Assembly (NCBI GenBank): GCA_030265395.1
Contig: JARFYF010000050.1
Coordinates: 38,344,457-38,408,456, forward strand
Reading direction: 5' to 3'
DNA: 64,000 nt
From: Rhina ancylostomus
Taxonomy: Eukaryota
Shown here: piece after piece, positions 11,313-39,298 of the stretch
How positions within the stretch are numbered: the first letter of the stretch is position 1
How the letters are laid out: every line of letters starts with the position of its first letter
Position numbers and translations under genes: made by a program
Notes under the pieces: model-generated
What the model saw: only the letters and a program-made list of their open reading frames with translations
Told to the model about the DNA's origin: nothing
The model's database searches: none

Positions 11313-11540
11313 GTGTGGTAACAGGCCCTTCTGGCCCAGCGAGTCTGCACTGCCCATTTTAAACCCACATTAACCTACCCATGCATCTTTGGAATGTGGG
11401 AGGAAACCGGAGCACCCGGAGGAAACCCATGCAGACGGGGGAGAACGTACAAACTCCTTACAGGCAGCGATGGGAATCAAACCCGGGTCGCTGGTGCTGT
11501 AATAGCATCGCGCGAACCGCTACACTACTGTGCCGCCCAC
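11313..11540 (-). mobile_element. V-SINE (HE1-like tRNA-derived SINE)
   Basis: Reverse strand has a tRNA-like head with A/B boxes (tagtgtagcggt...gggtttgattccc), then the V-domain ggagtttgtacgttctcccc...gggtttcctccgggtgctccggtttcctcccaca. Confidence 0.85.
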
Positions 11541-13019
11541 GGTTCAGATCACGGTATGGCACGGTAGGGATCAGGAGGCTCAGGGGTATCTGGGTGGGAG
11601 AGCAAGGGTAAACCAGGGCTTGGTGAAGGGGATTGAGAACGAGGTTGAATTCAGGTTGAAAAACCCAACGATACNNNNNNNNNNNNNNNNNNNNNNNNNN
11701 NNNNNNNNNNNNNNNNNNNNNNNNNNNNNNNNNNNNNNNNNNNNNNNNNNNNNNNNNNNNNNNNNNNNNNNNNNTGCTCCAAATTCCAGTATCTGACATC
11801 TCTTGTGTCTCCCGAGATCTTAAATAATTACTGAGCAACAAATTCTTCAAAGTTCTGTACTCCAAACAGAAAGGTAGCTGAAGATGCAAGGAAAGCTAAG
11901 ATTTTGGGCATTATACAGTGAGAGCATGGGGTTGTAGGGTGCCGTGAAGTGTTGGCCCCTTAAATAGCAAAGCTTCAGTACAAGCAGCGCAGTAAACCCT
12001 GCTTGCTCTGTGGGTAAATAACAAACATTGCTTTTCAAACCAGTGAAGTTGAAAGTCACATTAGCGATGAATTCTGGGCATTGCACAATTGGTGATATCA
12101 CTTGGGGAAATTTTACTGCAGAAAAATGTATCTAGTCCTTGCATGAATCCCCCCCAGAAAGTCAGGTGTTGAATTTCCGACTAGGCATTAGGGCCTAGAA
12201 ATGGTCGCAATGTTGTTCTCTTCCAGGTTAAGCTCGTTTCCAAGCATCATTACGTTGAGTGAAGGAATTTCTGGGCCAACATTTTTGGTCAATGACTTTC
12301 ATCAGAACTGGGAACTACGAGAGATCAACAGGTTTTAAGAAGTAGAGGAAGGGAGGGAGGGGAAGAAAGAACACAGGGGAAGTCTGCCTTGGGGCAGGTG
12401 ACAGAAGAGGTTCAATACCAAAAGGGGTGACAGTGCAAGGTGAAAGAGGGTGATAGTGGGTACATAAAGAAACAAAAGGTTAGTCTAAAGAAGATAGGCA
12501 CCTAGAAAGGGAATTAGGGGAATGGGGACAGAGTTAGGGACTTGCTGGTTTGGGGGACTGAAGAAGATTGGGCAACAAGGTAAGAGTTGTAAAATGGAGG
12601 GTAGTGCAAGAAATAGGACCTGGGTGAGTTTGTTTGTCTGTGTCCATGTGTCTATGTGTGCTTGGAGTGTGTTTTCGTCCACAGATGTGCAGCAGAGCCT
12701 AGTCTCCAATTATCTTGACCCCTTAGACATTGGACCAAGATCCCACTCTGTCAATACTGTACAGTAGATGTTTTGTAATGGCAACCCCACCTTAAAAGAA
12801 CTCAAAGGCACATCCTCCACTTCTCAGAATTGAAGTGGAAGCAAGTTACTCATGATCCCTAGGGACTGCTTAAGAAGTAAAAGAAATGGAAAAATCAAAT
12901 GAATTATCTGATGTTAGCAAAATAACAAATGTAATGTTGGAAATCTGATATAGAAGAATATTAAATCTGGAAAGCTGTAATTTGCTTTCGTGCACACAGT
13001 TAAGAAATGGTCAGAAAAC

Positions 13020-13680
13020 AGAAAATATTGAAAATATTGAGCGAGTCAGACAGCTTCTGTGGAGGGAGAAACAGAGCTGATGTTTCAGGTCAAGGTCTTT
13101 CATCAGAATCGGGAGAAATTAAAGATAAAGCAAATTTTAAATTGCAGAGAAAGGAAGAAGAGTGAAGAGGGTTTAGAGAAAGGTTTATGATACAGTATAT
13201 ATCAGAAAAATGTAAATGACAAGCAGTAACAGAGCAGGAGAAAAAGGTAGGTGAAAGAATTAGTGAATGACAAAAGGTAGGCTTGAATGTAACACAAGTA
13301 AAACAATGATCTGAAATTACCAGAAAAGAGGAAAAAAAACATTTTAGCAGGAAATGTGACTGGCTGGTTGTCTGAAATTGTTAAATTCGGCGTAGAGTAT
13401 GGCAGGTTGCTACATGCTCAGTCAGAAGATGGTTACTATGCCTTGTGCTTACTTTGGCTTTGTTGGAACAGTGTAGGAGGCCAAAGACAGAAAAGTCAAA
13501 GACAGGATCAGTTGAATATTAAAGTGATGGGAAACTTGACGGTCAAGGTCATGCATGCGGACCAAACAGAAGTGTTCTGCAAAGCGGTGATACAACTGTG
13601 AGCAGCGACTCTTCCAAGTCAAAAGAAGTGCGAGTGATTCTGAATGGATTTCTGAACAGATTTCTGAACAGTCCATAAAC
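13020..13680 (-). mobile_element. Penelope-like element 3' remnant with hammerhead-type repeat
   Basis: The minus ORF contains RFAEH...QVSHHFN (GIY-YIG tail). CTGATGA...GAAAC motif at 13075-13110. Confidence 0.6.
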
Positions 13681-15319
13681 CCTTGACCACCACCTCATTA
13701 TTTCTCTTTTGCATTATTTGTATATTTTTGTAAATTATAGTAATTTTTGTGTCTTACACTGTACTGCTGCCGCAAAACAACAAATTTCACGACATATGTC
13801 AGTGATGATAAACCTGATTCTGATTTCCTGCTTCATCTGAAAGCAGGGTTTGGGTCTTTGGACATTTGAGAAAGATTGAGTGAAAGACCAAGTTTGACAT
13901 CCCCTGCTGTTGCACAGAGAGGTGCCCTAAGAAAGGGAATAAAAACAGGTTAAGTCCAACTTCCTGGGCCAAATGTCTGTCCAGTTACATATGCCACACC
14001 GCACACCCTTTCAGCCTATATAATTCACTTGGTAGCAAATTATCATAATCAATACACTGTGCAGTCATTAGAGAAACACAGTAAAGCAGCAGCTTAAAAT
14101 GCAATAGGCAAAGTTAGAAATCAAGTTCAGGCATCCAAAATGTTAAATAGTCATTCTGCAAGAAATTCTTTGAAGTTCAACACAATTACACAACGAAGTT
14201 TTGATTGGTGACAGAGGGGGTGGACAAGTGCTGCAGGCTATATGTACTAAACATGCAGCTACTTGGAATTACTCTGTTTGGCACACAATATGGAGTACAA
14301 TAGAAAGTAACAGATCAGAAATGATGATAGTTCCTGACATTGCAAACCAATTAAGTTTAGATAAATGAGTCACTCTGACATAAGAGCATTGTAGTTGTTA
14401 AAGAGGGTGAGCAGAAGATCTGGAATTGTATGTGGCTTCAACATGTCTCATTGGCAACTTTCCCCTGCACTGGCACAGCCACATGCAGCTTGAAGCATGT
14501 CAACCAGTGGCATGGAATGGGAGCTAATGAACAAGCTTTTGCCACCCCTGCAACAAAGCAGCTTTAGCAGAGAATTAGAGGTTACAGCAGGGAAGGAGAC
14601 CATCTGGCTTATCTCGCATGAACAAATTCATAACATATACCAGCTCTTTACTTAAATGAGTTATGAGCTTAAATTACTCCATGCTATGAATGTTTTTTTT
14701 ATGTAAAGGGATTTCTCCACATTCTGAGTAACAATTTTTAAAATAACAGCCTCTTCTTACTGATTGCTCAGGAGTGAAAAAATGTCCTCAGTCAGCATTA
14801 TGAAGATGCAATATTGTGGCCATTCTGCAGTATCCAGTCCTTCCCAAATTCTATTCTATTGAATTATCTGATTTAGGATAAATTTCTTATATTATTAATT
14901 GTGGTCAAAACCCTTCATAATTTGTAAAAAGCTCTTTATATTAACTCTCTTTATTGCCTTTTCAGCGCCAGTGAAAATAATCACAATACTTCCTATAAAC
15001 TGTAGTTTCCCAACTTGAAATTATTGTGATAATCTACATTGGTTGCTTTCAAAGAATTTACTGTCTTTTTGATGAAGGGATCTCCCATCTGGGACAACAG
15101 TGCTCTAACTGCAAAATCATTTCAGCCTTGAAACTTCTTGTTCTTGTACTCTACGATGACAGTGATAAAACACAGAACGTTTGCCTTTTTCCCTAACCTG
15201 TCATTATCTCCCTGAAATCTTTGACACAATACTGTGAGATGATTTGAATCATTCAGCCTGCTATTGTGAGGAGTTGAGAAGGCTGTCTACTTGGTATCCC
15301 TGCAAACCACAATATGGAA

Positions 15320-15960
15320 GAGACAATTAACCATATCTGTACAGTAGTGGAATGATAGGAACTTTGCATTGTAATCTGGCAGCACATAATGACTGTAGTA
15401 TCTGCATTTCCCAAGCCCTCATGAATACTTGGACCTCTGCCTTTGAGACCTTTGGTTCAAATGTAGAGTCACCCGTGGTTTCTAGCTTCAGCCAATCAGC
15501 AATCCTGGAATAGGAGGACCTTAAGGTCAAGATTAACAGACTTCACTGTGGCACAGAAAGTCTGCTCAGAGGTGACGGAGTTCCCAGCAGCAGTTGTGTG
15601 CCTGGTTAGGCATGGATGAGGCTATTTTCTCTCAGGCACATAAACCAGCCTTTGCAGACAGTTATACTAACATGCAAGCGGAATGCCTAAATTTGAGCCA
15701 TCCAACTTTCAGCTAGCTGGTACTTTTATTCATTCCCAGACAATTCCCATGTATCTAAAGTTTGCTTTCTTTCTTCTCATTGTCAGCTTTTACTAAGGCA
15801 TCCTTGTGGCTATTTGCTGATGTTACTTTTACTTTGCTTTCCTCCAAGCTAACTTGTAGTCCATGTGTTTAAAGCCTCCTGCAAACATTCTGTTATTTCC
15901 TTCAGCTTTTCAGTAGCTCCAGGTATTAGATCATAGTGCCAGCACACATCTATTCAATGT
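15320..15960 (-). mobile_element. Ancient non-LTR retrotransposon RT remnant (RTE-like)
   Basis: Frameshifted GATEKLKEITECLQEA/HGLQVSLEESKVKV resembles the post-YADD region (YGLxINxxKTKVM), with a downstream AWEMQILQ-like segment. Confidence 0.35.
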
Positions 15961-16689
15961 CAACTGTTCATTAATAATTCCTTTCTAAATGCTCTTTTCC
16001 CTATTGTACCATTTGTAATTGAGCTTGTTAGAGGACTCTTAGTGGTCATGATAATTCACGAGAGAACAGAAAACATTTCCTTCCATGCAATCCCTCAGAA
16101 TCATGAATTTTGTAGGGTTAAGTTTGCAAGGCAAAATTGATTCATTTTTCCTGAGTACTACAGAAAATTTGGCAATGTTGTTCCTTAGAATTGAGTAATA
16201 ATTGTTTCTCACGGGTTTAATTTAAAGCGAAATTTTTTTCATGCCATTAATAAAGGTAAATAAAATCTCCCCAGGCACCTCAAATAACTTCCTGTCTGTC
16301 AAAGTCAGGTGTTCAGCACAGAAAAAAGCTTTGAAAAATACACATCTCAAAGGTGACTAAGAGAACAGGTGTAATCCCATGACCCACCTATGGAATGCTT
16401 GCATGGACGCAGCCCTTAATATTAATCATATGGCTCTGTCGAGGCCTTTTGACTAGAAATGCATTTTATTGTCTGAACTTGCAGTAAATGAGAGTCCAGG
16501 TTTTGAAGGTACCTTTGCTGAAACTGATAGTAGTTCCTCATATAACTAACAGCAACTTGGGCATTTCCAAGGACTTGCTCAGCATTGACCAGGTGGGCTG
16601 AATGGTCTCTTTCTTTGCTGTGACCATTGTATGCCTGGGCTTCTGAGCTCCCTCCATCACTGGAATCCTTGAGGAATTCAGGCGGGAGA

Positions 16690-17352
16690 ATCATAGAGTC
16701 ATACGGTACAGAAACAGATCCTTTGGCCCAAGTGGTCCACGCTAAGATTCCCATCTAAGCTAGTCCCATTTGCCTGCATTTGGCCCATATCCCTCAAAAC
16801 CTCTCCTATCCATGTACCTGTCCACATGTCTCCTGAATGTTGTTAATGTGCCTGCCTCAACACTCCCTCTGGCAGCTCATTCCATGTACCCACCACCCTC
16901 TGCGTGAAGAAGTTGCCCCTCAGGTCCCCTTTAAATCTTTCCCCTCTCATCTTAAACTTATGCCACCTAGTTTTTAGTTCCCTTTCCCTGGGAAAAAGGC
17001 CATGTGTGTTCACCCTATCTATGCCCCTCATGATTATATGCACCTCTATAAGGTCACCCCTCGATCTCCTACGTTGCAAGGAATAAAGACCTACCCTGTC
17101 CAACCTCTCCCTCTCACTCAGGCCCCAAAATCCTGGCCGCAGCCTCATAAATCTTCCCCACACTCTTTCCAGTTTAATAACATCCACAGTGTTAAAACTG
17201 TCCACAGTGCTCCAACTGCAGCCTCACCAACGTCTTGTACAACTGCAACATAACGTCCCAACTCCTGTACTCAGTGCCTTACAGATGAAGGCCGGCGTGC
17301 CGAAGGCCTTCTTCACCACCCTGTCTACCTGTGACGCCACATTCAGCGAACT
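16690..17352 (-). mobile_element. CR1 LINE 3' end
   Basis: ERVWGRFMRL...ERLDRVGLYSLQRRRSRGDLIEVHIIMRG...FFTQRVVGTWNELP, followed by the CR1 3'UTR tail. Confidence 0.9.
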
Positions 17353-17836
17353 GTCCTGCTGGGGAAGGAGATCTGTCAGCTTTCCCTGCCTGAACTGTGG
17401 CTGACTCCAGACTACATCCATGTCATTTCATAGTCCATCTTGGGGTTGACAGCAGGACATTCAGTGGTGTGAACTGTGGAACTAGGTACCTTCACCACTC
17501 AGACTGCAGTGGATCCAGAGGTCAATTCACCAGCACTTTCCCAAGGACAGTAGGAATGGGGAATAAATGGACCCTTCACATCACCAGTAGGAATAAAAAA
17601 TAACAGCGATATTAATTTACCCCAGTAAAACAGCAGATGGTGTAAATCTGAAATAAAAACAGAAATTGCTGCAAACTCTCGGCAGGTCAGGCAGCGTCTG
17701 TGGAGAGAGAAACAGAGTTGATGTTTCAGGCCAGAGGTCCTTTGTCAGATTGCTTGCTCTAATGAAGGATCTTTGACCTTGGTTCTCTCTCCACAGATGC
17801 TGGTGGACCTGCCAAGTGTTTTGAGAATTTTCTTTT

Positions 17837-18130
17837 ATATTATTAATTTACCCACGAGTTATCCACAACAATTAACTTCATTATTAATTAATCCCTAATA
17901 TTAAATAATTTGTTATTAACAGTCATCTCTCATTTTATAACTTGCTATTAAATAATCCTAATATTAACATCCATTGATCTTAATATTAATAATCCCAAAA
18001 TTGAATATTAATACAGAATAACTACAATATTAGCAGGCACTCTGTATACACTACCCACAAAAGACATTGCTGACACTACCATAGATATTCATTGAGGCCA
18101 ATATTCAATATTATTAATTAATTCTGACAT
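17837..18130. repeat. AT-rich low-complexity (attaat)n-like tract
   Basis: Repeated tattaat/ttaata words. Confidence 0.6.
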
Positions 18131-18289
18131 CAGATGGCCCCAGATTGAAATAACCCATTCTGAAATCCTGCAGGAGTATTCCATTCATAATTGTACATTT
18201 AGTTAACACCTGTTGCCTCCCCTATCACTTCCCCCTCCCCCTATTAATTCTCGTACAACTTTAAAGACCCTTGCAATCAGTACGTGGGG

Positions 18290-18548
18290 TAACAACGCAC
18301 GCAGATGGCCACACCCTGAGTGCACTAGTACGATAAGATGGACTCTTGACCTCACAATCCACCTCATTGTGGCCTTGCACCTTATTGTCTGTCTGCACTG
18401 CTCTTCCTCTGTAACTGTAACACTTTATTCTGCACTCTGTTATTGTTTTCCCCTTGTACTACCTCGATCCACTGAGGTAATAAATTGATCTGTATGGATG
18501 GCATGCAAAACAATGTACCTTGATACATGTGACAATAATAAACCAATT
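18290..18548 (+). mobile_element. Rex1/Babar LINE 3' tail
   Basis: Close match to 43190-43390 (gatggactcttgacctcacaatc...gcaccttattgtc), ending gtgacaataataaacc. Confidence 0.7.
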
Positions 18549-18689
18549 CACATTTTACACTTATCACTGAGTCTGCAATTCACCAAATCCTTGTACTATT
18601 GTCCCCTAGAGATAATCTGATTTCCCAGACGTAGCAGTGTGCTGAAATCACAAAGTGTTGCCACCATCCTGTGCAGCAACCCACAGAGA

Positions 18690-19520
18690 CCTAGAAATAC
18701 CCCTCCCTGTCCCCAGCTACTTGCCCCTGCAACCATAGGTGGTGTAACTCCTGTCCCTTCACCTCCTCCCTCACCACCACCCAGGGACCTAAACAGCCCT
18801 TCCGGGAGAGGCAGAGATTCCCATGCACCTCCTCCATCCTGGTCTGCTGCTCTCGGTGCTCCTGATGTGGTCTCCGCTGCCTCGGTGAGACCCAGTGTAG
18901 ACTAGGTGACTGTTTTTAAGAGTACCTGCACTCTGTTTGCAGTGGCCATCCCGAGCTTCTGGGTGCGTGTCACCTCACCTCCCCTCCCCACTCCCACACC
19001 ACCGGTGTGCCCTTGGCCTTCACCACTGCCACAGTGAGGCCAAACACAAACTAGAGGAACAACACCTCATATTCCAACCCAATGGTGTGAGCATTGAATT
19101 TATCAGTTTCAGGTAACCCGTGCCCTCTGTGTCCTTTCTCACTCCCACCGATCCACCCGGAGACTCTCTCCATTTGTCCACCTCTTCCCCTAGCCTCCCG
19201 TTACCCAGATTCACTACTGCCCCCACCTGTTCCATCTGCCCATCTCCCACTCACCTGCTACTTCTTGGCCTACCCTTCCTATCCCCTCCCCCACCTGGTT
19301 CCATCTGTCCATAATCCCTCTCTTGTCTGTTTCTGCCTATCAGCTACCAGCCCCCCGTCTCACCCCTCCATATACTTTCTGCCTTCCCCTCTACACTCTC
19401 AGTCCTGACGTCGGGTCTCGACCTGAAACGTCGACCGTCCCGACTGTCCCACAGGTGCTGCCTGGCCCACTGAGGAAGTTTGGTCTTTGCTCCTGATTCC
19501 AGTATCTGCAGTCTCATGTG
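18690..19520 (+). mobile_element. Penelope-like element 3' remnant
   Basis: GIY-YIG tail (SEAKHKLEEQHLIF), a pyrimidine-rich tail and a terminal hammerhead-type repeat at 19401-19436. Confidence 0.7.
19401..19436 (+). ncRNA. Minimal type I hammerhead ribozyme-like motif (Penelope terminal repeat)
   Basis: agtc-CTGACGT-c-gggtc(tc)gacct-GAAA-c-GTC-gacc: a CUGANGA-like box with one mismatch, a stem II hairpin, the GAAA box, a GUC cleavage triplet and a short stem I. Confidence 0.55.
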
Positions 19521-21179
19521 TCTCCTTCCATTGTCCTTGGTGAAGTGCCTGGGGCTGTTCACTCTTCGCTGAGGGGGAAATGAATCCTTCTCACACTAGA
19601 CCTCCATCCCACCACCTCCTCGTTCTTGCTCTCATACCCTTCCACGTACCGCACTTCATCCTGCAGAGGCTGCCGGCAGACTGTGAAATACTCCAATCAC
19701 CTCCCTCAACTCCCCACCAACAAACCTCCATGTGATTGGAAATCCCTTTAAATGGAGATGTTCTTACTGCAGTTAAATGCTGCATTCCCAATGCAAGCCA
19801 TTTGTTGCAATTTGGCAGCATTGGCATCAAATCGTGGGGCACTGACAGTGCGATCTGCCTACTCTGCAGCTTCAGGCACTGCCTTCCCGCTAGGCAGGTG
19901 GCACAGACCACTCCCCATCGTACATCACAAACCCGCATTCAAACTATACCAAAGCTTTGTGGCCATGGAGTGCAGCATGCAGATTTTCTCCTGGTACCCT
20001 GGGAAGACTACACTTGCCTCAGAGTACATTCACATTGACAACGTGGGTTTCACCGGGTGCTCCAGTTTCCTCCCGTATCCTGTGGTGGGTTAACTTACTC
20101 CGGGTGTAGCTGGGTAGTCATAGAATGGGCATGTGAGGGAGTGGATTACCGGGAAATAAAATGGGGCTATGGGACTGATGGGAATGCTGAGCTGGCATGG
20201 ACTTGATGGGCTGAATAGCCTCCTGTGTTACGAGAAGTGTGAAATAAATCTGAAATGTGGAGAAGTTTCGTCGTTGAAAAGGTTCGTGAACATTGGAGTT
20301 CTGTACCCAGGAGAGCTGTGGATTGCAGTCAAATCTGACAAAAAAGGGATTGAGTAATAATTTATGTGGAAGATCCCCCATGATCTTTGGAACAGGCTGA
20401 GGGGCAGAATGGCCTACTGCTGCTCCTCACACTGACCATGGCTCGTAACCTGGTCCATGGGGCACGCACACACCAGTCCTGGGTAATTCACGCCGGCCAC
20501 ACACACACTGCCCATCGATCCCTGCACCATTGTTCTCAAATTCACAGATCTAAGCAGAATCATCCGCTCACTAATGTACTGACCCACGGCACACTGGACG
20601 TGTACTTGGGAATAAAATTGGAACCCAATCTAATGCCCCACCTACAGTTGGATGCCGTCAGGTGACGGGGCTTTACTGTACAGTCTGTCTGTACCCCTCA
20701 GCCCCCTTTGTATTACTCTCTTTCTTTCTTCCTGTCTCCCTGGTTTGATTATTCTCTCCCCCTTCCATCCTCTCTCTGCCTCTGTGTCCTCTTTCTCAGG
20801 GTCTTTAACTCTCTTTTCAGTGTGATTCACTCGATATCGGTCTCCGTGTGTGTGTTTCCCTGACTCCATCTCCATTATTTGTGACCTCCGTCTTTATAAC
20901 TCTGAACCTTCCAGGTCCTTTCACTGCTCTGTATTTCCATTACCCCCTTTACTGTCTCCTATACCACACATGTGCTTTCTGCCTGCCTTTCCCTCTCTCT
21001 CTCTGCCTCTCTCTGATCGTCCCAGTAATATGTTAAAAGAAACATCCTGTATTGAATATTTCCAAGCGAATGAATGCTTTAAAACAAGACACATGGGAGA
21101 ACTTGCTGAGTGTGGTGACTGTGGTCTCATGGGGAAGATTAGTGGTCAGACTTCAAAGAGTGTCTTTTCTTGCCATCAG

Positions 21180-21300
21180 GCTCCATTACGTCCTGGGTCG
21201 GTCAGCGTCTCATCCTGGAGGACGGGCACCAGATTCTGAAGACCATGTGGCTGTTGAGATCTCCAGTTGCCAGCCTACAAGACGACTGGAAGTCGACAAG
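21180..21300 (+). CDS. Avidin-family biotin-binding protein, penultimate exon
   Basis: Strong acceptor (tcttttcttgccatcag) and donor (AG|GTGAGC); 121 nt. Encodes (G)SITSWVGQRLILEDGHQILKTMWLLRSPVASLQDDWKST(R), matching the avidin signature GQ..G...LKTMWLLRS.....DDWK.TR. Confidence 0.9.
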
Positions 21301-21489
21301 GTGAGCCTTCACATTGAGCTGTCCAACCCTGGGATCCCTGTAGCGAGCACTGATGGGATCCCATACTGACGTGTGAGCACTGATTCAATTTTCAAAGATT
21401 TGGGAGGAAAGAAATTGTTATGGTGAAGTGAAGTTTTGCCCTGTGGGGAACACAAGGAAACCGTTGATTCCAGTGCTCAGTACTTAACA

Positions 21490-21770
21490 TGGATTTAAAA
21501 TAATGGGTGGGAAGTTCAGGGGAGATGTCAAAGGGAGGATTTTTAACCCAGAGAGTGGTTGGTGCATGAAATGCGCTGCCTGGGGTGGTGGTGGAGGCAG
21601 ATACGTTGGTCAAGTTCAAGAGATTACTAGATAAGAAAATGGAGGAATTTAAAATAGAGCGATACGTGGGAGGAAGGGGTTAGATAGTCTTAGGTGTGCT
21701 TTGCAGGTCAGCGCAACATGGTGGGCTGAAGGGCCTGCATTGTGCTGTATTGTTCTATGGTTCTATGGAA
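21490..21770 (+). mobile_element. CR1 LINE 3' end, in the avidin last intron
   Basis: ttttaacccagagagtggttggtgcatgaaatgcgctgcc...gggctgaagggcctg...ttctatggttctatg tail. Confidence 0.8.
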
Positions 21771-22197
21771 ACAAAGACACAAACTTAAAATCAGAACCAA
21801 AATACTGCAGGTGCTGGAATTTTGAAATAAAACAGAAATACTTGGGAGGTCAGGCAGTATCTGTGAAGAAATAGGGTAAATATTTCGAGTTGATGATCTT
21901 TCGTTAGAATCTGGTAAAATCAAAGGCTGATCGTTGAAGATACTTCCCTCCTGCAAAAGCTGAAACAAATGTGGAGTTCCCGCCCAGAAAAATCATTGTG
22001 TGTTGCTCAATCAACAACCTCAAACCTGGAACTGGTTGGTAAATTTTTGCTCCGTTACAATGTGAAGGGAGCCTGAGCCGCAGTACAGATCAGTCATGGT
22101 CTCATGGGTGGTAGAACAGGCTGGAGGGTTTGAACGGTCTCCTTGTGCTGTGTGATATTGAAATAACCTACTCACTTTTACTTCTTGCTTTTCCAAG

Positions 22198-22258
22198 AAT
22201 TGGACAAGACACTTTTCTCCAAACCACAAGGGATGTCCTGTCAAAGAATCAACATTAA
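22198..22258 (+). CDS. Avidin-family protein, terminal exon
   Basis: Pyrimidine tract and ttccaag acceptor, phase 2 consistent. Encodes (R)IGQDTFLQTTRDVLSKNQH-stop, matching the final avidin strand (VG.N.F / MGEDIF). Confidence 0.85.
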
Positions 22259-22313
22259 TCTCTCAAACCTTAGCACGGACCCATCAAACTCCTGACCTGC
22301 AGATGTGATTTTC

Positions 22314-22319
22314 AATAAA
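22314..22319 (+). terminator. Polyadenylation signal of the avidin-like gene
   Basis: AATAAA 55 nt after the TAA stop. Confidence 0.7.
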
Positions 22320-22607
22320 GCAGTTAGAAATGCCAGTGTTTCATGGAGTGTGCTGTCTGATCCATAACTCACATCGCTCATGGTAATGGACCGGCTGCTT
22401 TGTCCCAGGGCATTAGCTACTTCTCGAGGTTCACTGTAATCCAGGAAGGTTTAGTGAAGTGCCACTGATTGACACGACATGACAGACTGTGGCTCCCACT
22501 GTCACTTNNNNNNNNNNNNNNNNNNNNNNNNNNNNNNNNNNNNNNNNNNNNNNNNNNNNNNNNNNNNNNNNNNNNNNNNNNNNNNNNNNNNNNNNNNNNN
22601 NNNNNNN

Positions 22608-22765
22608 GGGGTACGATGTAGTGCAGGAACACGGGGGTAATGGGGTGGGGTACGATGTAGTGCAGGAACCCGGGGGTATTGGGGTGGGGTACGATGGAGT
22701 TCCAGAACACAGGGGTATTGGGGTGGGGTACGATGGAGTGCAGGAACACGGGGGTAATGGGTTGG
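22608..22765 (+). repeat. 39-bp G-rich minisatellite (at least 4 copies, abutting a gap)
   Basis: Unit ggggtacgatgtagtgcaggaacacgggggtaatggggt; tacgat recurs at 22612, 22651, 22690 and 22729. Confidence 0.9.
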
Positions 22766-24119
22766 CAGAGGAATTGGTGTGGGTGGGTGGTGGTGAATTA
22801 GCCAGAAGTTTGTACTATCAGAGTGGGTGGGGTTACGTGCTGGAGAAACGTGATAATGAAGCGGGCAGTGATGTGGTGATGGGGGTTCGTCGTACTGATC
22901 TGTAGGGTGATGGAGTTCAGGAAGATGAGGTTCATGGTTGGAGGATATGAACAAAGATAATAGAATGTTTGCAGTCCCTCAGACCCTCCAGTACCTTCCA
23001 TCGTTGTGTTCGCCTTGTCAACATTCATGCAGTGCAAGAAAAGTGTATGAATTCAAGAGCGGCATGCAGGAAGACAGTCATTGCACAGCCCCCTGTATCC
23101 ATGCTGACTAAGTACCTGTTAAAGTCGACCCATGCTCTGTAATAAACCAGAGAACAGCATCAATTGATTAATAATGTGGCCAAAAACAATGAGAATGACC
23201 CCGGGGACCCACTGTCAGGCATGGTGACCCTATTCTTGTGGAAGATGAGGGTGAGGAATTGGAAGATTCCCTGTGGGATAGACTCCCCCCGTGTGCCCCC
23301 CCCAGGGATTCCAGGCTTTCCCACCGTGGGGACTTGTACCTGCACCTCGTGGTGCAGAGTAATTAACCCAGCCTCCCGTCAGAGACGAGCAAGGAGCAGG
23401 ACCCCCGAGCAAAGAGGGAGAGAAACCTCTTTTCTCCCCAGATGGAAACAAAGATCCAGTTGGACAGGGCAAAACCCCGAGATCTCTTTCCCCTCTGTTG
23501 TGCTGTATTGAATCCTGAAGAGAACATTAAGTGGAAGGCAGCAATGCTGCTTCCTGCATGAGGGGGACATCCTATTGATACTTCTGAAGATTTAAATCAG
23601 CAAAATGATAATCCGAATCAACAAGTTAATATCATGTTGACAGCTCTCTCAGAGAGTTTGAAAAGACCAATCGACATGAGTAAGTTGTGGCATGTAAACC
23701 TACTTTTACAGAGGACTTTTGGGAATGCTTTACTACAGCACATCAGACATATGCTGGGGATTGGGCTTACAAAAGGGTCGCTCGAATATTTTTAATGAAC
23801 TGCCACCACTGCGCAGGGATACCTTCTTTAATTGTGGGCGAGAAGGACACTGGCGACGGGACTGTCCCATTAGTTACCAGGAGAATATGGACGACAGGCA
23901 CAAGAGAAGGAAGGCACCCTTCACCACTAACAACCCCTACAGACAGTGACTTAGGTCGCAAGAAAGGCCCACACGTTACCTTTCATCATCACATCAAATC
24001 TGGGTTGTAATTTGGCTGGGACTTGCTCAGATGACTTGAATTGGAAATACTGTGCACCGATAGGGGGGTCTATGTGAGTTCGCCCTCTGTGCAGCCACAA
24101 GCCATAGTGGCAGTCAGCC

Positions 24120-24500
24120 CTCCCCAGTGGTGGTCAGTAGATCTTCCTCCAGCACTGCGCTCTTCTGACCTGCCGAACCCTCATGTCATCCTGTGCTATG
24201 ATCCCACTGGTCACGACTGGGAGAAAGAGCACTTCTATCAGCTGTATGAAGGACACACGGTTAATGTACGCTTGACCGGGAAAGTTGAGGGATGGCAGGG
24301 AACAACCCTGATGGCAGAAGTGCCAGAGATGATGTGGAAGCAAATGGGATTAATCCATCCACATGTTACACTCACTGTTAATAAGGGACATATGGCTAAG
24401 GAGCTTGGTGTCTTGACCCAATGTTTGGTGAATCTTGCTGATCCTAATTTGACCACTAAGCAGGAGTTCCCTCAAGGTGCGTTGACCTACTGGACGACCA
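24120..24500 (+). pseudogene. 2H-phosphoesterase (CNPase-like) domain within the ERV pol
   Basis: Two H-x-T-type motifs 60 aa apart: PHVIL (His at 24182; ATC is one transition from ACC/Thr) and HPHVTLTV...AKELG (His at 24362). Located between protease and RT. Confidence 0.7.
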
Positions 24501-24799
24501 ATCAAGAAGTTTTTGGCATATTGAAACATCACCGGTCACAGGACAGGATGGAAGTTCCGATGAGGTCTGGTCTGCATGTCCGACGAGGTAGGAAAACCCA
24601 TCTGTGCGCTGGTACGCACGTCAGTAAAACTCAACGTCCAGCAACCGTCTATACCACAGGACCCTTTGAAGCCTAAAGTACATGAAGGCAACTTACAACT
24701 GTTAACCCAGCTTCTTTTCCGACACAGCCAGCCCCTGAGATTTCAGAGCCTGATCATGACTGTCTGCAGAGAAATCATTTCCTAATTTTGGCTCCTGAG

Positions 24800-25165
24800 G
24801 ATTTAAAGGACTGTCCAATTAATGGAGCCACAACCTGGTTAGCGGATGGCCAAAGCCAGCGATGATCTGGTTATTCTATCGCACAGGGTACTGATACAGT
24901 GATAGAGGCTGCAGCCTTCCATAGTTCTCTCTCTGCACAACAAGCTGAACTCTTTGCTCTAACATATGCCTGCATTACAGGAAAGAATATTTCCCTTAAC
25001 ATTTACACAGACTCGCGATATGCGTTTGGTGTGTTGCGGCAGCATCGTGAATTTCTGACCTCCTCAGGTGCCCCTATTAAAAAGGCCATGTTTGTGTCTA
25101 ACTTGCTAGCGTCTCTGTCCCAACCGGCAATAGTTAAGTGTGATGCACACACTGGGAAATGCCTA
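24800..25165 (+). pseudogene. ERV RNase H remnant
   Basis: WLADG...SAQQAELFAL...NIYTDSRYAFG...LTSSGAPIK...IVKCDAH, the catalytic motifs of gamma/epsilon-type RNase H. Confidence 0.9.
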
Positions 25166-25588
25166 GGCTCTTCTGGGTCCTGTCACTCTAACAGGACCCA
25201 GAAGAGCACCGGGACAGAGGCATGTCAGCCTACAGCACACATAGTTACTAAGTGGTATAAGCCCAAATATAATCAGTCCAGAGAGCCCCCTCATTTTACA
25301 CTGACCCAGTTTACCAAGGGAGGAACATGTGCAGAATATCACCCACTGAGCAAACCACATCAAGGAACGGATAACCGAGGTACAGGAAATTGGAGACCAG
25401 TTTCACAATTACAATTCCCTGAGACCATCTTGGTAGCCTTTTAAGGGATAGTTGACAACATTTATCCAGGGTATATGCGTCATCACTGTTATTCTGTTGA
25501 TAATATTGCTTTTACACAGAGTATGCTACACTCCTGTCTTAAGTTAAATTTGCTCTAAGTGGTTATCATGGAATGATAAAGGAGGGAA

Positions 25589-26029
25589 TGTAGAAGACAA
25601 TGGGAAGGGAGCTCTGGTGAACAAAGGGTTACTCTCTCTCTCTCTCTACTGGTAAGCAGCTTGAGCCACCTGCTCGTGAAGCTTAGCAACGGTTTATCAG
25701 CCAAGCTGACTTCAAGGCCACAAGAAGAGGGTTGTTTTTGAGACTAACTGCGAAGGATGTGTTAACCTGTCTGGGACCAATGATAGTGAGAGCTGGTCAA
25801 GCACATCCAAATATGGGTATGCCAGTGCAATAGGTGGACACCAACCCGTGAACAATGTATTTAAGTTTGTTAGCACCCTGTATTCCTTGAGTCAGGCCAC
25901 ATGCAGGGAAGAGCAGCACTGACTGTTTGCTCCTCCATGTACCCTCTACTCCAGCTAGCATTAAANNNNNNNNNNNGTACACTCCTTGGTTCTGCTGTTG
26001 TCTGATTAATTACAGAGCGCAGGTTGACA
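25589..26029 (+). mobile_element. ERV LTR (single copy)
   Basis: Polypurine tract aaaggagggaa (25578-25588), then TGT...ACA termini. TATA-like tatttaa near 25858 and ATTAAA at 25960. Contains an 11-N gap. Confidence 0.75.
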
Positions 26030-26030
26030 T

Positions 26031-26050
26031 TGGCGTTAGTGGGCAAGATT
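26031..26050 (+). promoter_or_regulatory. Primer-binding site, tRNA-Ser-like
   Basis: TGGCGTTAGTGGGCAAGATT, one base after the LTR CA end, resembles the complement of the tRNA-Ser 3' end (TGGCGTAGTCGGCAGGATT). Confidence 0.7.
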
Positions 26051-27099
26051 TCACAAGGATACCTGGACACCTCCGGACTGAGTAAGTGACAGACTGCGTT
26101 CAGAAGGTCAACGGGAGAGATAAGGTGCCTTCGGACCCCTTGTGCCTGACTCCTATATTGACCTCCGGGAACACTGTGGTCCCTCATCCGAGGTCGATCT
26201 GGATCCCTGCCGAAATCCCAAAGAACCAGCAGAAGGCAAGGAGATTCACAGGTTATTTTTAAGACAGTCGTATAGTATATAAAAAGTCATTTAGTTTGAT
26301 ATAAAGAACAGAAAATATTTTGAGTTTGCTTGGTATAAGTAAGGTCATATGGAATAAATTCACTTGGTAAAAATAAGTACTTAAAGTTCGTGAGGTATAA
26401 GTTCATTTGGTATTAGAGTTCGTATGGAATAAATAAGTTCGTTTGGAAAAATAAAGAAATTCTACAGAGTTTGTTTGGGAAACAGACTTTGTTTGGAGAT
26501 AGTGTTCATTTGGAAACATAGTCTGGGATAAATTGTAATTTGATCTGAGGCAGTGAGGCCAGGATAAATTCTGATCTGGACATCAGATGTAAATCAGAAA
26601 TCAGAATGGGACAGACTTTGGGGGGGGGTGGGGGCACCCCCGTGCAACAGATGTGTTACCTGCACCCAGAACATCAAAAACAGTATCGACAATTGTTAAC
26701 TGAAGAGTGGCTGATTGGTGGCACAAGGTACACATTAAATCATCTGTTTAAAAGACATCAAGGGAGATATTTAATCTAATTTCTTTTTGAAGGCTCTAAT
26801 TTCCATCTTATTTCACGTTATCTTATAATTTAATGTTCAGTCTGCTGCTCTTTAATTTCAAGAGTGCTTTTCAGTTTGTGGTAGAAATTTATGTTTTGAA
26901 ATTGATACTTTAATGTATAAGTGTTGTTTTTGTCTTTCATATTATTAAGATTTTTTGAGAATTGAGTTCTAATAAGTTAGGTTTTAAATAGTTAATGAGC
27001 AACATTATGTACTAAAGAGAGGAAAGGAATTAGGAAAAAAGTGGAAAAGAATGAGGGAGAGGGAGACCCAGAGCTCCCTTCCCATTGTCATCTACATAC

Positions 27100-27860
27100 C
27101 TGTCTACATTAATCCTGTTAACTCCCTTGCTGATTCAAGTGCTGGTCCACATTCCTCTTAAATGTTGCAAACATCTCCACTTCCACCACATGGCAGTCTG
27201 TTCCAGACTGCAACCACCCTCTGGGTGTAAAGATACTTCCTCAGATCCCCCTAAACTTCCTACCCCTCACCTTAACCCTATTCTTTCTGGTCTCAGATAC
27301 TGCAGCCAAGGAGAAAACTTTCTTCCCTAACTATGCCTTTCATAATTTTGTATACCTCTATTGGGTCCTCACCCTTGAAACCCTGGTGTTCCCTGCTGCG
27401 TTCTTTTGCCTTCGTCTGTGAAGGAANNNNNNNNNNNNNNNNNNNNNNNNNNNNNNNNNNNNNNNNNNNNNNNNNNNNNNNNNNNNNNNNNNNNNNNNNN
27501 NNNNNNNNNNNNNNNNNNNNNNNNNNTCCAGCATCTGACATCCTTTGTTCCTCTAAATTCTCTAGTTCTGTCTGTAAATGGCTTATATTTGCTCTTGCTA
27601 GTCTTTTCCTTTTTACATACCTATAAAAGCTTCTATTGTCCCACTTTTCATATTCTACCTTGTCTAACTTTATCAATTTCCTGGCTTTTCTTTGCAAAGT
27701 TCTAAGCCAGAGGTGACTCAGCCACCTCTGCTCCAAGGAAAACAAACCCAGCCTATCCAGTCCCTCCTCATTACTGAAACACTCTATCCCAGGCAACATC
27801 CCAGTAAATCTTCTCTGCAGCCTCTCAAGTACAATCACAACCTTGCCATAGTGTGGCAAG
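27100..27860 (-). mobile_element. CR1 LINE 3' fragment, interrupted by an inverted duplication
   Basis: LERLQRRFTGMLPG...LDRLGLFSLEQR, then resumes DPIEVYKIMKG after an inserted segment. Confidence 0.75.
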
Positions 27861-29239
27861 GATAATGGAGGAAGGGGTGGAAGTTGGAGTAGAGGAAATA
27901 AGAGGTGTGTGCAATAGGAGAAATACGGTAGTCACAGGGGAATATATAAAGACTGGACAATTACCATCACTGTGATGAAGGACACATTTATGGAATGATG
28001 GTTTTCTGGATTGTAGGTTCAGGAATCAATAGGGGAAGAGGATATTTTGGGTCTCATTTTGCATAATGAGAAAGCGTTTGTTGGCAATCTTGCTGTAAAG
28101 GGGTCTTTGGGAAAGAGTGACCGTAACAGGATGGAACTTTGCAATGAGTGTGAAAGCGATTCAGTTCAATTTGAAAACTGGGTCTTACATCTAAACATTT
28201 AAAATTATAAAGGTGTGAGGTGAGATTTGGCCCTGGTTGATTGGGACAGAATATCAAAAAGTATGGTGGTAACAGATCATGGCTAGCATTTAAATCAAGC
28301 ACAGAATATATGACAGTAAACTCAACAGAAAATGTGTTCTAATATGGCTGAAATGAGAAATTTAAGATAGTCTGAATTCAAAGAAGGGATTTACAAAATT
28401 ATTGAAAATAACAATTGGCCTGTGAGGATTGGAAGCATTTTAGAACTTTGCAAAGAAGAGCCAGGAAATTGATAAAGTTAGACAAGGTAGAATATGAAAA
28501 GTGGGACAATAGAAGCTTCTATAGGTATGTAAAAAGGAAAAGACTAGCAAGAGCAAATATAAGCCATTTACAGATAGAACTGGAGAATTTTCTTCTATTT
28601 AGAGTTCTTCTATTTCTTTAGAAATGAGTTTAGAATTTAGAGTTCTTCTATTTCTATAGAAATTGTTCTTCTATTTAGAGAAACGAAGGTTGTCAGATGC
28701 TGGAATCTAGATGAAAAAAAAACAAGATTCAGGAGGAACTCAGCAAGTCATGAAGTATCCATGGTGTCACAATGTTGATCCGGAGCAAACTCACAGAGAA
28801 CCCAAATGTGGCACACTGATACAAGACTGGAGTCAGGATANNNNNNNNNNNNNNNNNNNNNNNNNNNNNNNNNNNNNNNNNNNNNNNNNNNNNNNNNNNN
28901 NNNNNNNNNNNNNNNNNNNNNNNNNNNNNNNNNNNNNNNNGCATGGAATCCATGTGCTGGACAACAAGGCATTAATGGAGCCAAATGAGGGCCAGAACTC
29001 AGAACCATGACACATGGAGAAAAATGGTCAACATTTCAGGAGAATTTATCTTGGGAAATAAGGAATTATGTTATATCTGCCTTCACCGACGAAGGCAAAA
29101 GAACCCAGCGGGAAACACCAGAGATTCAAGGGTGTGGCAGGACCGAGGGACTGAAGAAATGTGAAACAGTGCCAGAGAAGTTGGCGACACTAAACGCTGA
29201 TAAATCCCAAGGACTGACAGGAGGGGAGATGATCTTAAG

Positions 29240-29470: not shown

Positions 29471-29569
29471 ATGGAGAGTTTGGAAAAGGCACTTTAGAGA
29501 CGGTGAGGGTTCTGGTTACCATCGTCTACACCCCTGGAATTGGCTGTCGGATATGGTAAACCCTTCAAC

Positions 29570-29808
29570 AGTTCGGAGGCGGGGTACTGACAGGAGCGGC
29601 GGGCGGCCGGCGGCCGGCGGGCGGGATCCCCTCCGCGCTCTGCCCACAATGCAAGCGGACGAGGGTTGTCAATCAAACCCCATGACGCCCGGCCTGGCCT
29701 GCTGGCCCCACCCACTATTTCCCGGCCGCGCTCTCTGATTGGCGCTGGTTTTGCCGCAGTCAGGCGCAGCAGGGCAGCTTCACTTGGGGTCCTGTCGTTT
29801 CGGACAAG
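29570..29808 (+). promoter_or_regulatory. MRPS7 CpG-island promoter
   Basis: CpG-dense, TATA-less. GC box ggaggcgggg near 29575; ZNF143/Staf-like TGCCCACAATGCA at 29641-29653; inverted CCAAT (ATTGG) at 29738; YY1-type CAAGATGGCGGC overlapping the ATG. Confidence 0.8.
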
Positions 29809-29870
29809 ATGGCGGCGACTTGCGGCTGGCGGTCGGCGGGTTGTCTGAGCGGGAAAGTCCGGCTGTCGTG
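29809..29870 (+). CDS. MRPS7: MRPS7 exon 1 (mitochondrial targeting peptide)
   Basis: aagATGG Kozak context; MAATCGWRSAGCLSGKVRLS(W) is basic with no acidic residues; phase-2 GTGGGT donor fits exon 2. Confidence 0.8.
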
Positions 29871-30981
29871 GTGGGTGGGGTGTAGGGAGCGGTAGTGGGG
29901 TAGGTGNNNNNNNNNNNNNNNNNNNNNNNNNNNNNNNNNNNNNNNNNNNNNNNNNNNNNNNNNNNNNNNNNNNNNNNNNNNNNNNNNNNNNNNNNNNNNN
30001 NNNNNNNNNNNNNNNNNNNNNNNNNNNNNNNNNNNNNNNNNNNNNNNNNNNNNNNNNNNNNNNNNNNNNNNNNNNNNNNNNNNNNNNNNNNNNNNNNNNN
30101 NNNNNNNNNNNNNNNNNNNNNNNNNNNNNNNNNNNNNNNNNNNNNNNNNNNNNNNNNNNNNNNNNNNNNNNNNNNNNNNNNNNNNNNNNNNNNNNNNNNN
30201 NNNNNNNNNNNNNNNNNNNNNNNNNNNNNNNNNNNNNNNNNNNNNNNNNNNNNNNNNNNNNNNNNNNNNNNNNNNNNNNNNNNNNNNNNNNNNNNNNNNN
30301 NNNNNNNNNNNNNNNNNNNNNNNNNNNNNNNNNNNNNNNNNNNNNNNNNNNNNNNNNNNNNNNNNNNNNNNNNNNNNNNNNNNNNNNNNNNNNNNNNNNN
30401 NNNNNNNNNNNNNNNNNNNNNNNNNNNNNNNNNNNNNNNNNNNNNNNNNNNNNNNNNNNNNNNNNNNNNNNNNNNNNNNNNNNNNNNNNNNNNNNNNNNN
30501 NNNNNNNNNNNNNNNNNNNNNNNNNNNNNNNNNNNNNNNNNNNNNNNNNNNNNNNNNNNNNNNNNNNNNNNNNNNNNNNNNNNNNNNNNNNNNNNNNNNN
30601 NNNNNNNNNNNNNNNNNNNNNNNNNNNNNNNNNNNNNNNNNNNNNNNNNNNNNNNNNNNNNNNNNNNNNNNNNNNNNNNNNNNNNNNNNNNNNNNNNNNN
30701 NNGAGGGGTGGGAGTATGTGTGAGAGGGTGGGAAGATGTGGGCAGATGGTTGGGCTGCACAGCTCTGAGGAAGGGTGGGGGGCTGTGAGGGTAAATGTCT
30801 CAGGGTGTGGGTTGAGGGGGTGGGGGAAGTACCACATTGAAGTGTGTTAACAATGTGTTTATTGTGGAGGGATCAGTGTGTCCCGGGACATGTTGAGTGG
30901 GCAGAGTGCTGATGGGGGAAGGTGGGGTTTTGGGGTTTATCTGAAGTCCTGTCCTGTTCTCATTTACCTCGGTGTCCTCAG

Positions 30982-31173
30982 GGTGACACCAGTGCGGTGG
31001 TCACGGTACAATCGCTATTACCTGGAGCCTGTGATCAGCAAGGAACAGCAGCGGACTCCAGCCACTGAGCTCAGCGCAGAGGAGAGGGCAGCCCTGGAGC
31101 AAAAGGCAGCTCAACCAATAAAGGCTGCCCCGAATGACATAACCAGCAGCGTCTTCAGTGACCCAATGATCAA
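30982..31173 (+). CDS. MRPS7: MRPS7 exon 2
   Basis: VTPVRWSRYNRYYLEP...PIKAAPNDITSSVFSDPMI; AG/GT boundaries, 192 nt. Confidence 0.95.
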
Positions 31174-34707: not shown

Positions 34708-34875
34708 ACCTTTGAATTGATAAAACGGAAGCAGATTGAAAGCTACCACAAGGCCCCTGAGTCTGCAAAGGATGTCATTGAATGTAACCCATACAAGATC
34801 TTCCACCAAGCTCTGGAGAATTGTCAGCCTGTCCTAGGGTTAACCAGTGTACAGCGAGGTGGCAAGTCTTACCAG
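34708..34875 (+). CDS. MRPS7: MRPS7 exon 4
   Basis: TFELIKRKQIESYHKA...IECNPYKIFHQALENCQPVLGLTSVQRGGKSYQ; tag/GTATG boundaries. Confidence 0.96.
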
Positions 34876-34999
34876 GTATGCCTGCCTGACGCTGAGTGCT
34901 GCCTTTCATCGAAGCTTTTGGTTTGTTTCTTGCCTCTTGCATCTCGTGACTTAAGTCCCGTCCTGCTGTGGCTACTCCAGCATGAATCAGAATTGGCTT

Positions 35000-36030
35000 G
35001 CCCATAGAAGACAGAGGGTGGTGGTTGATGGGACTCATTCTGGCTGGGGGGTCTGTGAACAGTGGTGTTCAGCAGGGACCTCTGCTGATTGTGATATCTA
35101 TAAATGATTTGGATGAAAGTGTGGATGGCTGGGTTCATAAGTTTGCAAGTGATACAAAGATTGCTGGCATTATGAATAGTGTAGAAGATTGCCAAAGGAT
35201 ACAGCGGGATGTAGATCAGTTCCAGATACAGGTGGGGAAATACCAGATAGAGTGTAATCCGGACAGGTGTGAGGTATTGTAGTTTGAGAGATCAAATGTA
35301 AAGGGACAGTGCGCAGTTAATGGCAGGACTCCTAACAGTGTTGATGTACAGACGGATCTGGGGTCCAACTTCATAGCTCACTGAAAGTGGCTGCACAGAT
35401 TGATAGGGTGGTAAAGAAGGTGTACGGCATGCTTGCCTTTATTAGTTGAGGCACTGAGTTCAAGAGTCAGAAAGTTATGTTGCAGGTTTATAAAACTCTG
35501 GTTAGGCTGCGTCTGGAGTATTACATTCAATTCTGGTTGCCCTATTAGAGGAAGAGTGTGGAGGCTTTGGAGAGGGTGCAGAAGAGGTTCACCAGGATGC
35601 TGCCTGGATTGGAGGGCATGTGCTATAAAGAGGTTGGACAAACTTGGGTTGTTTTCTTTGGAATGGCTCGGGGAGACCTGATAGAAGTTTATAAGACTGA
35701 GAGGCACAGATGGAGTAGACAGTCAGTATCTTTCTGCCAGGGTCGAAATGTCTAATACTAGAGAGCATGCATTTAAGGTGAGAGGGGGAGGGTTCAAAGG
35801 AGATATGTGGGGCAAATTTGTTACACAGAGCAGTGGGTGCCTGGAATGTGCTGCTAGGGGTGGTGGTGGAGACATACAATAGATGCGTTTAAGATGCTCA
35901 TAGATAGGCACATGAATGTGCAGAGAATGGAGGGATATGGACATTGTGTAGGTGGAAGGGATTATTTTAGGTGTTTAATTAGTTCAGCACAAGGTCGGGG
36001 CTGGAGGGTCTGTTCCTGTGCTATTCCTAT
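35000..36030 (+). mobile_element. CR1 LINE ORF2 3' part (MRPS7 intron 4)
   Basis: SGVQQG..INDLD...KFASDTKI...CEV; ALERVQKRFTRMLPGLEG; GDLIEVYK. Confidence 0.9.
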
Positions 36031-36619: not shown

Positions 36620-37125
36620 TGCAGATGCTGAAAATTTGAAATGGACACAAACTACTGAAAGTACTCAGCAGGTAAGGCAGCACCTGTGGATAGAGAAACA
36701 GTTAATGTTTCAGAGTGGTGAACTTTCATCAGAACCAAGAGAAATTAGAAATCACACAGGGTAGGAATGGGGTAGGGGTGAGGAGAGTAAATGGAACCTC
36801 TGTGGGTGGAGGCTCTGCACTGGAGAAACCACACAGGGATCAGGTGGCCACCTGTAGCAAGGCTCCCTTCGGTCTCCAAGGGTAATCCTGACCTTCCTCC
36901 TGCCTTTTCACTTGAATTCTCCTCCCACTTCCATGCTGACTTCTGTCCGTAGCCACCTGCGCTGTTCCAGTGAAGCCCAGTGCAGACTCCAGGAACAGTA
37001 TTTCATCTTCTGTCGAGGCATGTTACGTTCTCCGGACGTAACAATAAATTCAGCAATTTCAGATTACCAGTCTTTCCAACTTGCATCAGAACTGTCTGGT
37101 CATTAATTCGATCTTACTGTCACCA
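36620..37125 (+). mobile_element. Penelope-like 3' remnant with an inverted terminal repeat; continues at 38575-38790 after an L1 insertion
   Basis: SEAQCRLQEQYFIF GIY-YIG tail; inverted hammerhead-type repeat at 36700-36735; direct copy near 38720. Confidence 0.55.
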
Positions 37126-37225
37126 NNNNNNNNNNNNNNNNNNNNNNNNNNNNNNNNNNNNNNNNNNNNNNNNNNNNNNNNNNNNNNNNNNNNNNNNNNN
37201 NNNNNNNNNNNNNNNNNNNNNNNNN

Positions 37226-39030: not shown

Positions 39031-39076
39031 CTTCCCAGTTCGTTAATGGATTTTATTCCCTGAATTCCTGTTGCAG

Positions 39077-39298
39077 GTTCCGACACCACTTAAGGACAAC
39101 CGTCGTCGTTTCCTGGCCATGAAATGGTTAATCACTGAATGCCGTGACAACCGGCACCGACGCACTCACATGCATGAGAAGTTGTCCCAGGAGCTGCTTG
39201 CTGCCTTTAAAAATGAGGGCAATGTGGTCAAAAGGAAGCACGACCTTCACAAAATGGCGGAGGCTAATCGAGCCTTCGCCCACTACAGGTGGTGGTGA
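39077..39298 (+). CDS. MRPS7: MRPS7 exon 5 (terminal)
   Basis: [19 protein letters not shown]...[24 protein letters not shown]-stop, the uS7m C-terminus. The five exons total 708 nt (235 aa). Confidence 0.97.

Follow-up and report, generated by a model that had tools for sequence, protein, structure and literature searches.

An endogenous retrovirus of permuted gene order in Rhina ancylostomus, framed by opposite-strand long terminal repeat ends and a 4-bp target-site duplication

How does a provirus come to carry its only complete long terminal repeat (LTR) in the middle of its body, with gag divided between the two sides? The question is raised by an endogenous retrovirus (ERV) within a 64,000-nucleotide stretch of Rhina ancylostomus DNA (GenBank assembly GCA_030265395.1, contig JARFYF010000050.1, positions 38,344,457 to 38,408,456 of the forward strand; hereafter the window, numbered from its first letter). 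An earlier note on this DNA had placed the element at 23040..26730 with no LTR at either end, and had read it as a 1-LTR circle opened within gag and inserted without integrase, or as the remnant of a tandem provirus. Its true ends were found at 23117 and 27096, enclosing 3,980 bp that begin with TG and end with CA, with the tetranucleotide TACC outside both. A single-LTR element with permuted gene order is genuine here and probably reflects no scaffolding swap; we consider it marginally better than an even chance that the provirus integrated normally and was then turned inside out in place by two abutting inversions and one deletion with filler.

Translation, together with comparison to named shark and skate Gag-Pol proteins, established the plus-strand order as the 3' part of gag, pro, a 2H phosphoesterase-like domain, the start of reverse transcriptase (RT), RNase H, an env remnant, a polypurine tract (PPT), the LTR, a primer-binding site (PBS), a leader and the start of gag. 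The arrangement first described, a permuted order around one central PPT-LTR-PBS unit with gag split on either side, was thereby borne out. The PPT (25578-25588) and a PBS-like sequence beginning TGG (26031-26049) are read directly from the plus strand, as is the LTR between them (25589-26029), which runs from TG to CA and contains a TATA-like motif at 25858, ATTAAA at 25960 and an 11-N gap at 25966-25976. The PBS is putative, and we take it to resemble tRNA-Ser.

When the region was compared with the window by blastn, the ends of the central LTR recurred as inverted copies at the margins of the element. On the left, 23117-23159 (minus strand, ending CA on that strand) is the U5-end stub of the original 3' LTR; its portion 23121-23159 is identical to central-LTR positions 25993-26031 at 31 of 39 sites (blastn E 0.006; next best in the window 23 of 39). 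On the right, 27046-27096 (minus strand, starting TG on that strand) is the U3-start stub of the original 5' LTR, its firm part, 27068-27096, being identical to 25589-25617 at 28 of 29 sites (blastn E 8e-8; next best in the window 19 of 29). Each LTR end occurs exactly twice, once at an outer margin and once centrally, the LTR middle occurs once, and no further LTR copy was found in the window. These minus-strand stubs run counter to the statement that neither end of the element has an LTR. As a separate observation, the central LTR ends (26028-26031) about 6 nt short of the outer U5 stub (23117-23123), as if by a slippage deletion beside the PBS.

TACC adjoins the stubs at 23113-23116 and 27097-27100 (plus strand); the context shared by the two ends amounts to 7 nt, which is read as a 4-bp duplication because of the CA end and the register of the host DNA. 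That host DNA is a minus-strand long interspersed element (LINE), presumably a CR1. Its 3' region, the integration target, occupies 27101-27367, goes on at 27717-27860 past the next gap and is contiguous in 4 of 4 CR1 references, and its distal 3' tail, continuing from 27101, lies on the other side of the element at 23074-23112. For the right piece, shuffle fractions were 0.03 or less with 6 of 9 reference tails, and the left piece matched the CR1 copy at 45129-45171 above all 200 shuffles. Anchored on the copy at 45020-45260 (25 of 30 sites, ungapped), the left piece gave an overlap of 4 as the best of 31 registers, with 12 of 20 sites against 10 of 20 for the next. In a test of the CR1 join, 8 of 17,178 control stretches scored as high, of which three overlap the site itself, four lie in another CR1 tail and one is unidentified. 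The interval 23040-23116, formerly counted as gag, is outside the element, and 23074-23116 matches the CR1 tail.

Target-site duplications left by integrase measure 4-6 bp. The TG...CA LTR termini, the duplicated TACC and the host CR1 resuming in register mark the insertion as the work of integrase; it was made on the minus strand, and the body now reads on the plus strand. Of the features of an integrase-made provirus, LTR termini joined to host DNA and a 4-bp duplication in continuous host DNA are both present; two complete direct LTRs around a colinear body are absent, stubs alone remaining and the body being reversed and permuted. Insertion without integrase is contradicted by the TG...CA termini, the duplication and the CR1 split in register, and at the junctions, where the earlier note had suggested looking for microhomology rather than a 4-6 bp duplication, it was the 4-bp TACC that was seen.

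In the provirus's own orientation the locus consists of the duplication, the U3 stub, filler, the reversed gag start, the reversed complete LTR, the reversed remainder of the body, the U5 stub and the duplication. The history that we favour starts from what the sequence shows, namely that an ordinary class I provirus integrated on the minus strand into the CR1 tail and left the 4-bp duplication; the later steps are inferred. A first inversion, with breaks in gag and about 43 bp inside the 3' LTR end, would have reversed the greater part of the 3' LTR, so that it stood opposed to the 5' LTR; recombination between the inverted LTR copies would then have flipped the leader-gag segment, assembling a single complete, reversed LTR with the PPT at one edge and the PBS at the opposite edge. 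Finally, the leftover LTR middle would have been lost along with about 60 matrix codons in one deletion, the break being patched with about 320 bp of AT-rich foreign DNA. Replication-based repair that switched template three times in a single event would give the same product and is included in this in-place reading.

Two original LTRs suffice for everything seen, given the two copies of each LTR end and the single LTR middle. At 9 of 68 sites the stubs depart from the central LTR, which might fit the 5' and 3' LTRs of one old provirus. Rearrangement in place also gives locality without an extra assumption, and its one deletion covers two losses plus the filler. The locus bears other inverted scars, namely a 17-bp fold-back at the pol/env junction and, next to the element, a stretch (27364-27705) that duplicates 28440-29144 in inverted orientation. 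Among simple inversions in human long-read data, the median length is 1,565 bp, and inverted repeats border 45 of 257 (PMC12350158).

Several observations weigh against this history. The left CR1 piece exceeded all 200 shuffles for only 2 of 9 reference tails; the join test gained much in only 1 of 5 references, the other 4 gaining 0-5 points, and for the principal reference its top-scoring cut points miss the exact position by about 20 nt. Of an LTR of about 441 bp the short stubs retain about 30-50 and 43 bp, and their symmetry must be put down to coincidence or to trimming of unstable inverted repeats. Their divergence is uneven (1 of 29 sites against 8 of 39; Fisher p 0.07), the origin of the filler has no explanation, and the proposed steps and their order would have to be drawn from the sequence of one allele.

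The symmetry of the stubs is better explained if the provirus excised itself and was recaptured at its own site, the locus being the germline-fixed fossil of that event. Recombination between its LTRs would have released a 1-LTR circle, with a solo LTR and the duplication staying behind; within one germ cell the circle, cut in gag, would then have been captured backwards in a break of the just-vacated solo LTR. All the ends would have been resected and filler added, and the product would still be framed by the original integrase scar. This yields exactly the observed order and LTR inventory and accounts for the middle of the solo LTR having been lost symmetrically. Intrachromatid LTR-LTR recombination is reported to give rise to circles of yeast Ty (PMC4751563), and fly testes contain abundant 1-LTR circles (PMC12951756). 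Such recapture, however, requires two coupled breaks and a hit in a 440-bp target, and homology would be expected to favour reinsertion in the same orientation, restoring a normal provirus. Circles integrated poorly in vector studies (PMC4510976), circle integration is rare in the fly germline (PMC12951756), and the gag ends, judged by eye against the Gag of the elephant-shark retrovirus CmiERV, seemingly do not abut. We regard this course of events as the main rival and a tentative possibility; of the circle first proposed for the element, it keeps the circle itself, excised from the same provirus and recaptured backwards in its own solo LTR, and abandons free-circle insertion.

The uneven divergence of the stubs, 20% for U5 against 3% for U3, would also suit the involvement of three LTRs. 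A second family member, or an LTR of a sister subfamily, would have lain in opposite orientation (or the outer stubs would themselves derive from such an LTR), the body would have flipped between inverted LTRs, and deletions would have trimmed both outer LTRs. Stub and filler together measure 371 bp, near the U3-R length, and have TATAA at offset 270, as in the central LTR. The filler, however, has 27% GC against 48%, five or more events would be required, and no additional LTR copy lies in 64 kb; we consider this route unlikely. The filler was also tried as a diverged LTR middle, to which it aligns no better than shuffles do, and as a miniature inverted-repeat transposable element with inverted ends, for which 86% of shuffles score as well; neither reading was supported.

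An assembly artefact, in which a normal or otherwise rearranged provirus was mis-joined at the 11-N gap or within two short contigs, appears improbable. The gap does lie inside the LTR, as cautioned earlier, and its real length may exceed the 11 N, leaving room for a second, partial LTR. The two contigs that carry the element measure 3.4 and 1.45 kb, an inverted duplicate of 97% identity is close by, and a circularly permuted scaffold in a rotifer was ascribed to an extrachromosomal circle (PMC5408684). Against this, the duplication and the split CR1 tie the two contigs together and settle how they are ordered and oriented, in 4 of 4 references the CR1 extends across into the next contig, both inverted junctions fall within gap-free sequence and the downstream ribosomal S7 exons are in order. 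A local swap of the two contigs was rejected on the CR1 continuity and the split CR1 matches.

Integrase-free insertion, into naive host DNA, of a free 1-LTR circle that had opened in gag, or else the trimming of a tandem provirus, would account for a lone LTR preceded by the PPT and followed by the PBS, with gag split round it. It is very improbable, since both outer ends show opposite-strand LTR termini together with the 4-bp duplication, and it would survive only if both stubs, the duplication and the CR1 register were all due to chance; a plain tandem provirus cannot yield outer LTR stubs of opposite orientation. The in-place, circle-recapture and three-LTR models are not separable from sequence alone.

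The body that was rearranged is a degraded, non-coding fossil with no function evident; all of its coding remnants lie on the plus strand. The 3' part of gag (23160-23949, stop at 23947-23949) is frameshifted and comprises a proline-rich region, capsid and a CCHC nucleocapsid, its onset being placed by eye near 23160-23240. Capsid-like matches to the named shark and skate Gag-Pol proteins begin at 23403 or 23442 and end at 23761; P0004 matched 23403-23687 at E 0.01, 23442-23537 gave z 8.2, and matches to P0008 reach 23761. The CCHC knuckle lies at 23827-23868 (zf-CCHC E 1.2e-5). A C-terminal remnant of the protease follows at 23960-24110, with P0008 residues 623-660 matching 24014-24133 and the stretch before 24014 assigned by eye; no N-terminal protease sequence bearing the catalytic motif was found.

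The 2H phosphoesterase-like domain (24122-24553) matches skate P0008 at E 1e-14 and has paired His motifs at 24182 and 24362, spaced as in P0007 and P0008. No Pfam 2H match was obtained for this region, an Atlas result for tRNA_lig_CPD (0.88) serves as a lead only, and a single-sequence fold was uninformative (pLDDT 35). The first 29 residues of RT are encoded at 24585-24671 (P0008 807-835, z 8.6), after which the RT core is deleted: about 400 aa of P0008 are skipped over 15 nt, and similarity resumes at P0008 residue 1235, position 24686. The end of the RT tether and RNase H then occupy 24686-25159 (Pfam RNase_H E 1.9e-8; skate P0001 49% identical, E 4e-29). Comparison with the shark and skate Gag-Pol proteins gave no match to integrase in the element.

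Exactly where RNase H passes into env-like sequence, at the pol/env deletion junction, stands the perfect 17-bp inverted repeat (25167-25207), the longest perfect stem in the window (next 13 bp; z -7.7); this fold-back-like scar probably arose as a templated fold-back at the deletion. A remnant of the env transmembrane subunit (about 25365-25538) shows a hydrophobic helix in translation and a lead-level Pfam GP41 match (E 0.076). This remnant, the loss of the RT core and the lack of an integrase match were absent from the first reading.

Beyond the LTR, the leader (26050-26605) contains AT-rich short repeats and a GTAAGT splice donor at 26082, a layout similar by eye to that of CmiERV. Forty codons of matrix are open from the ATG at 26606 to 26725; their identity is a by-eye register match to the start of CmiERV Gag (PMC4422223, supplement 1), and homologue, PDB, Pfam and Atlas searches with this piece gave nothing informative, the Atlas search yielding only unnamed short clusters. 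Set by eye against the same Gag, the stretches of gag on the two sides of the LTR probably do not abut, since some 60 matrix codons seem to be missing between them (PMC4422223). The interval 23009-23150 was tried as the matrix half following 26725, on by-eye CmiERV motifs, and was rejected: its hand score of about 19 (BLOSUM62) is below the chance expectation of about 23, and it overlaps the CR1 tail, the duplication and the U5 stub. The AT-rich filler (26726-27045, about 320 bp, 27% GC) ends purine-rich; it matched neither the LTR, the leader nor the body above shuffles and had no strong match elsewhere in the window. PDB searches with the gag pieces and the 2H open reading frame gave no relevant match, homologue searches with that reading frame and with an 841-residue frame (X at stops) found nothing, and an Rfam scan of 22600-29200 and a tRNA scan were both empty.

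In the homologue searches RNase H alone gave matches (18 of 216 candidates), the 7 best of the 18, and most of the named ones, being shark or skate proteins. A tree was built from 10 of the 12 named matches, 2 short matches and 6 unnamed ones being left out, and in its 11 rows the nearest sampled RNase H was that of skate P0001, with 98/99 support. Against structure chains, MLV-type RNase H gave E 1e-13 and lentiviral RNase H 1e-5 or weaker. We class the element as a degraded class I (epsilon-like) ERV, and 2H domains are known in fish retroviruses (PMC9503650). With cartilaginous-fish epsilon-like ERVs (CmiERV lineage II, PMC4422223; skate/catshark P0001, P0004 and P0008) it shares the local order gag-pro-2H-like region-RT-RNase H-env, the PPT, the TG...CA LTR and an AT-rich leader with an early splice donor. 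Unlike those elements, its body is reversed and permuted relative to its own termini, and the RT core, integrase, most of env and half of the protease are gone. The CmiERV PBS differs by eye from that found here (PMC4422223), and the walleye viruses WDSV and WEHV (genus Epsilonretrovirus) use a tRNA-His primer (PMC3185748).

Other known structures resemble the element in part. 1-LTR circles (PMC12951756, PMC4751563) likewise join one LTR to PPT and PBS with the coding region wrapped round, but the element is chromosomal, fixed and bounded by opposite-strand LTR stubs and an integrase-type duplication, and its gag ends are probably apart. Tandem LTR elements with a shared LTR (PMC5932611) also run from internal region through LTR to internal region; here, in contrast, the outer LTR remnants are inverted and no internal sequence is duplicated. 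Autointegration inversion circles (PMC4751563) similarly have inverted LTR copies and part of the genome reversed; their LTR ends join viral DNA, whereas both LTR ends here join host CR1 DNA. Complex inversions and inverted duplications formed by inverted-repeat recombination or template switching (PMC12350158) include kilobase inversions with a nearby inverted duplicate of a few hundred bp, as at this locus, although the rearrangement here is confined to one provirus and yields a seamless PPT-LTR-PBS junction. No precedent for the structure appeared in the titles and abstract openings of the literature searched, a scope outside which most subscription journals fall, and the structure may thus already have been described in print.

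The element occupies intergenic DNA: an avidin-like gene ends on one side of it, and the CpG-island promoter of a ribosomal S7 gene lies on the other. On that ground, selection against an LTR in sense orientation within an intron was considered and rejected. Exons of the avidin-like gene lie on the plus strand at 21180-21300 and 22198-22319 (PDB avidin/zebavidin E about 1e-8), the latter being the terminal exon, with AATAAA at 22314, and no minus-strand gene was found in 8001-22500. Downstream, plus-strand segments at 29560-29900, 30980-31173, 34708-35004 and 39047-39295 comprise the CpG-island promoter, an ATG at 29809 and then ordered ribosomal S7 exons (Pfam E 3.6e-7 and 1.1e-20); we take the gene to be MRPS7. 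The inverted duplicate at 27364-27705 copies part of a block of CR1 and short interspersed element sequence at 28440-29144 (identity 147/151 and 55/61) and is inserted in the provirus's CR1 target; with a 100-N gap within each copy, it may be real or partly artefact.

Elsewhere in the window, a 39-bp G-rich minisatellite of 4.1 copies (22608-22937) decays towards the element and borders a 100-N gap. A separate, degraded retroviral-type RT fragment at 50828-51088 (plus strand) is 30-50% identical to its shark Pol matches (E 0.001-0.03). Minus-strand fragments match Pfam Lipase_GDSL_2 at 33-311 (E 4.3e-6) and DDE_Tnp_4 at 5304-5570 (E 0.0012), presumably a LINE ORF1 esterase and a Harbinger-type transposase, and minus-strand frames at 37123-38269 resemble by eye a fragment of an L1-type ORF2.

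The rearrangement also left the sole complete LTR and its splice donor pointing at the CpG-island promoter about 3.5 kb downstream, with no effect evident. The locus keeps its own history, in that the integration scar, both LTR ends and the seamless PPT-LTR-PBS junction survive, and a permuted single-LTR element need not represent a free circle inserted without integrase. Because such an element may be integrase-made, anyone screening for circle reinsertion must look on both strands for LTR stubs and for target-site duplications. If the provirus was in fact recaptured from its own circle, the locus would be direct genomic evidence that LTR-LTR excision circles re-enter a vertebrate chromosome at their birth site; it would then be a rare vertebrate case of local excision-circle recapture, and such loci could be counted genome-wide.

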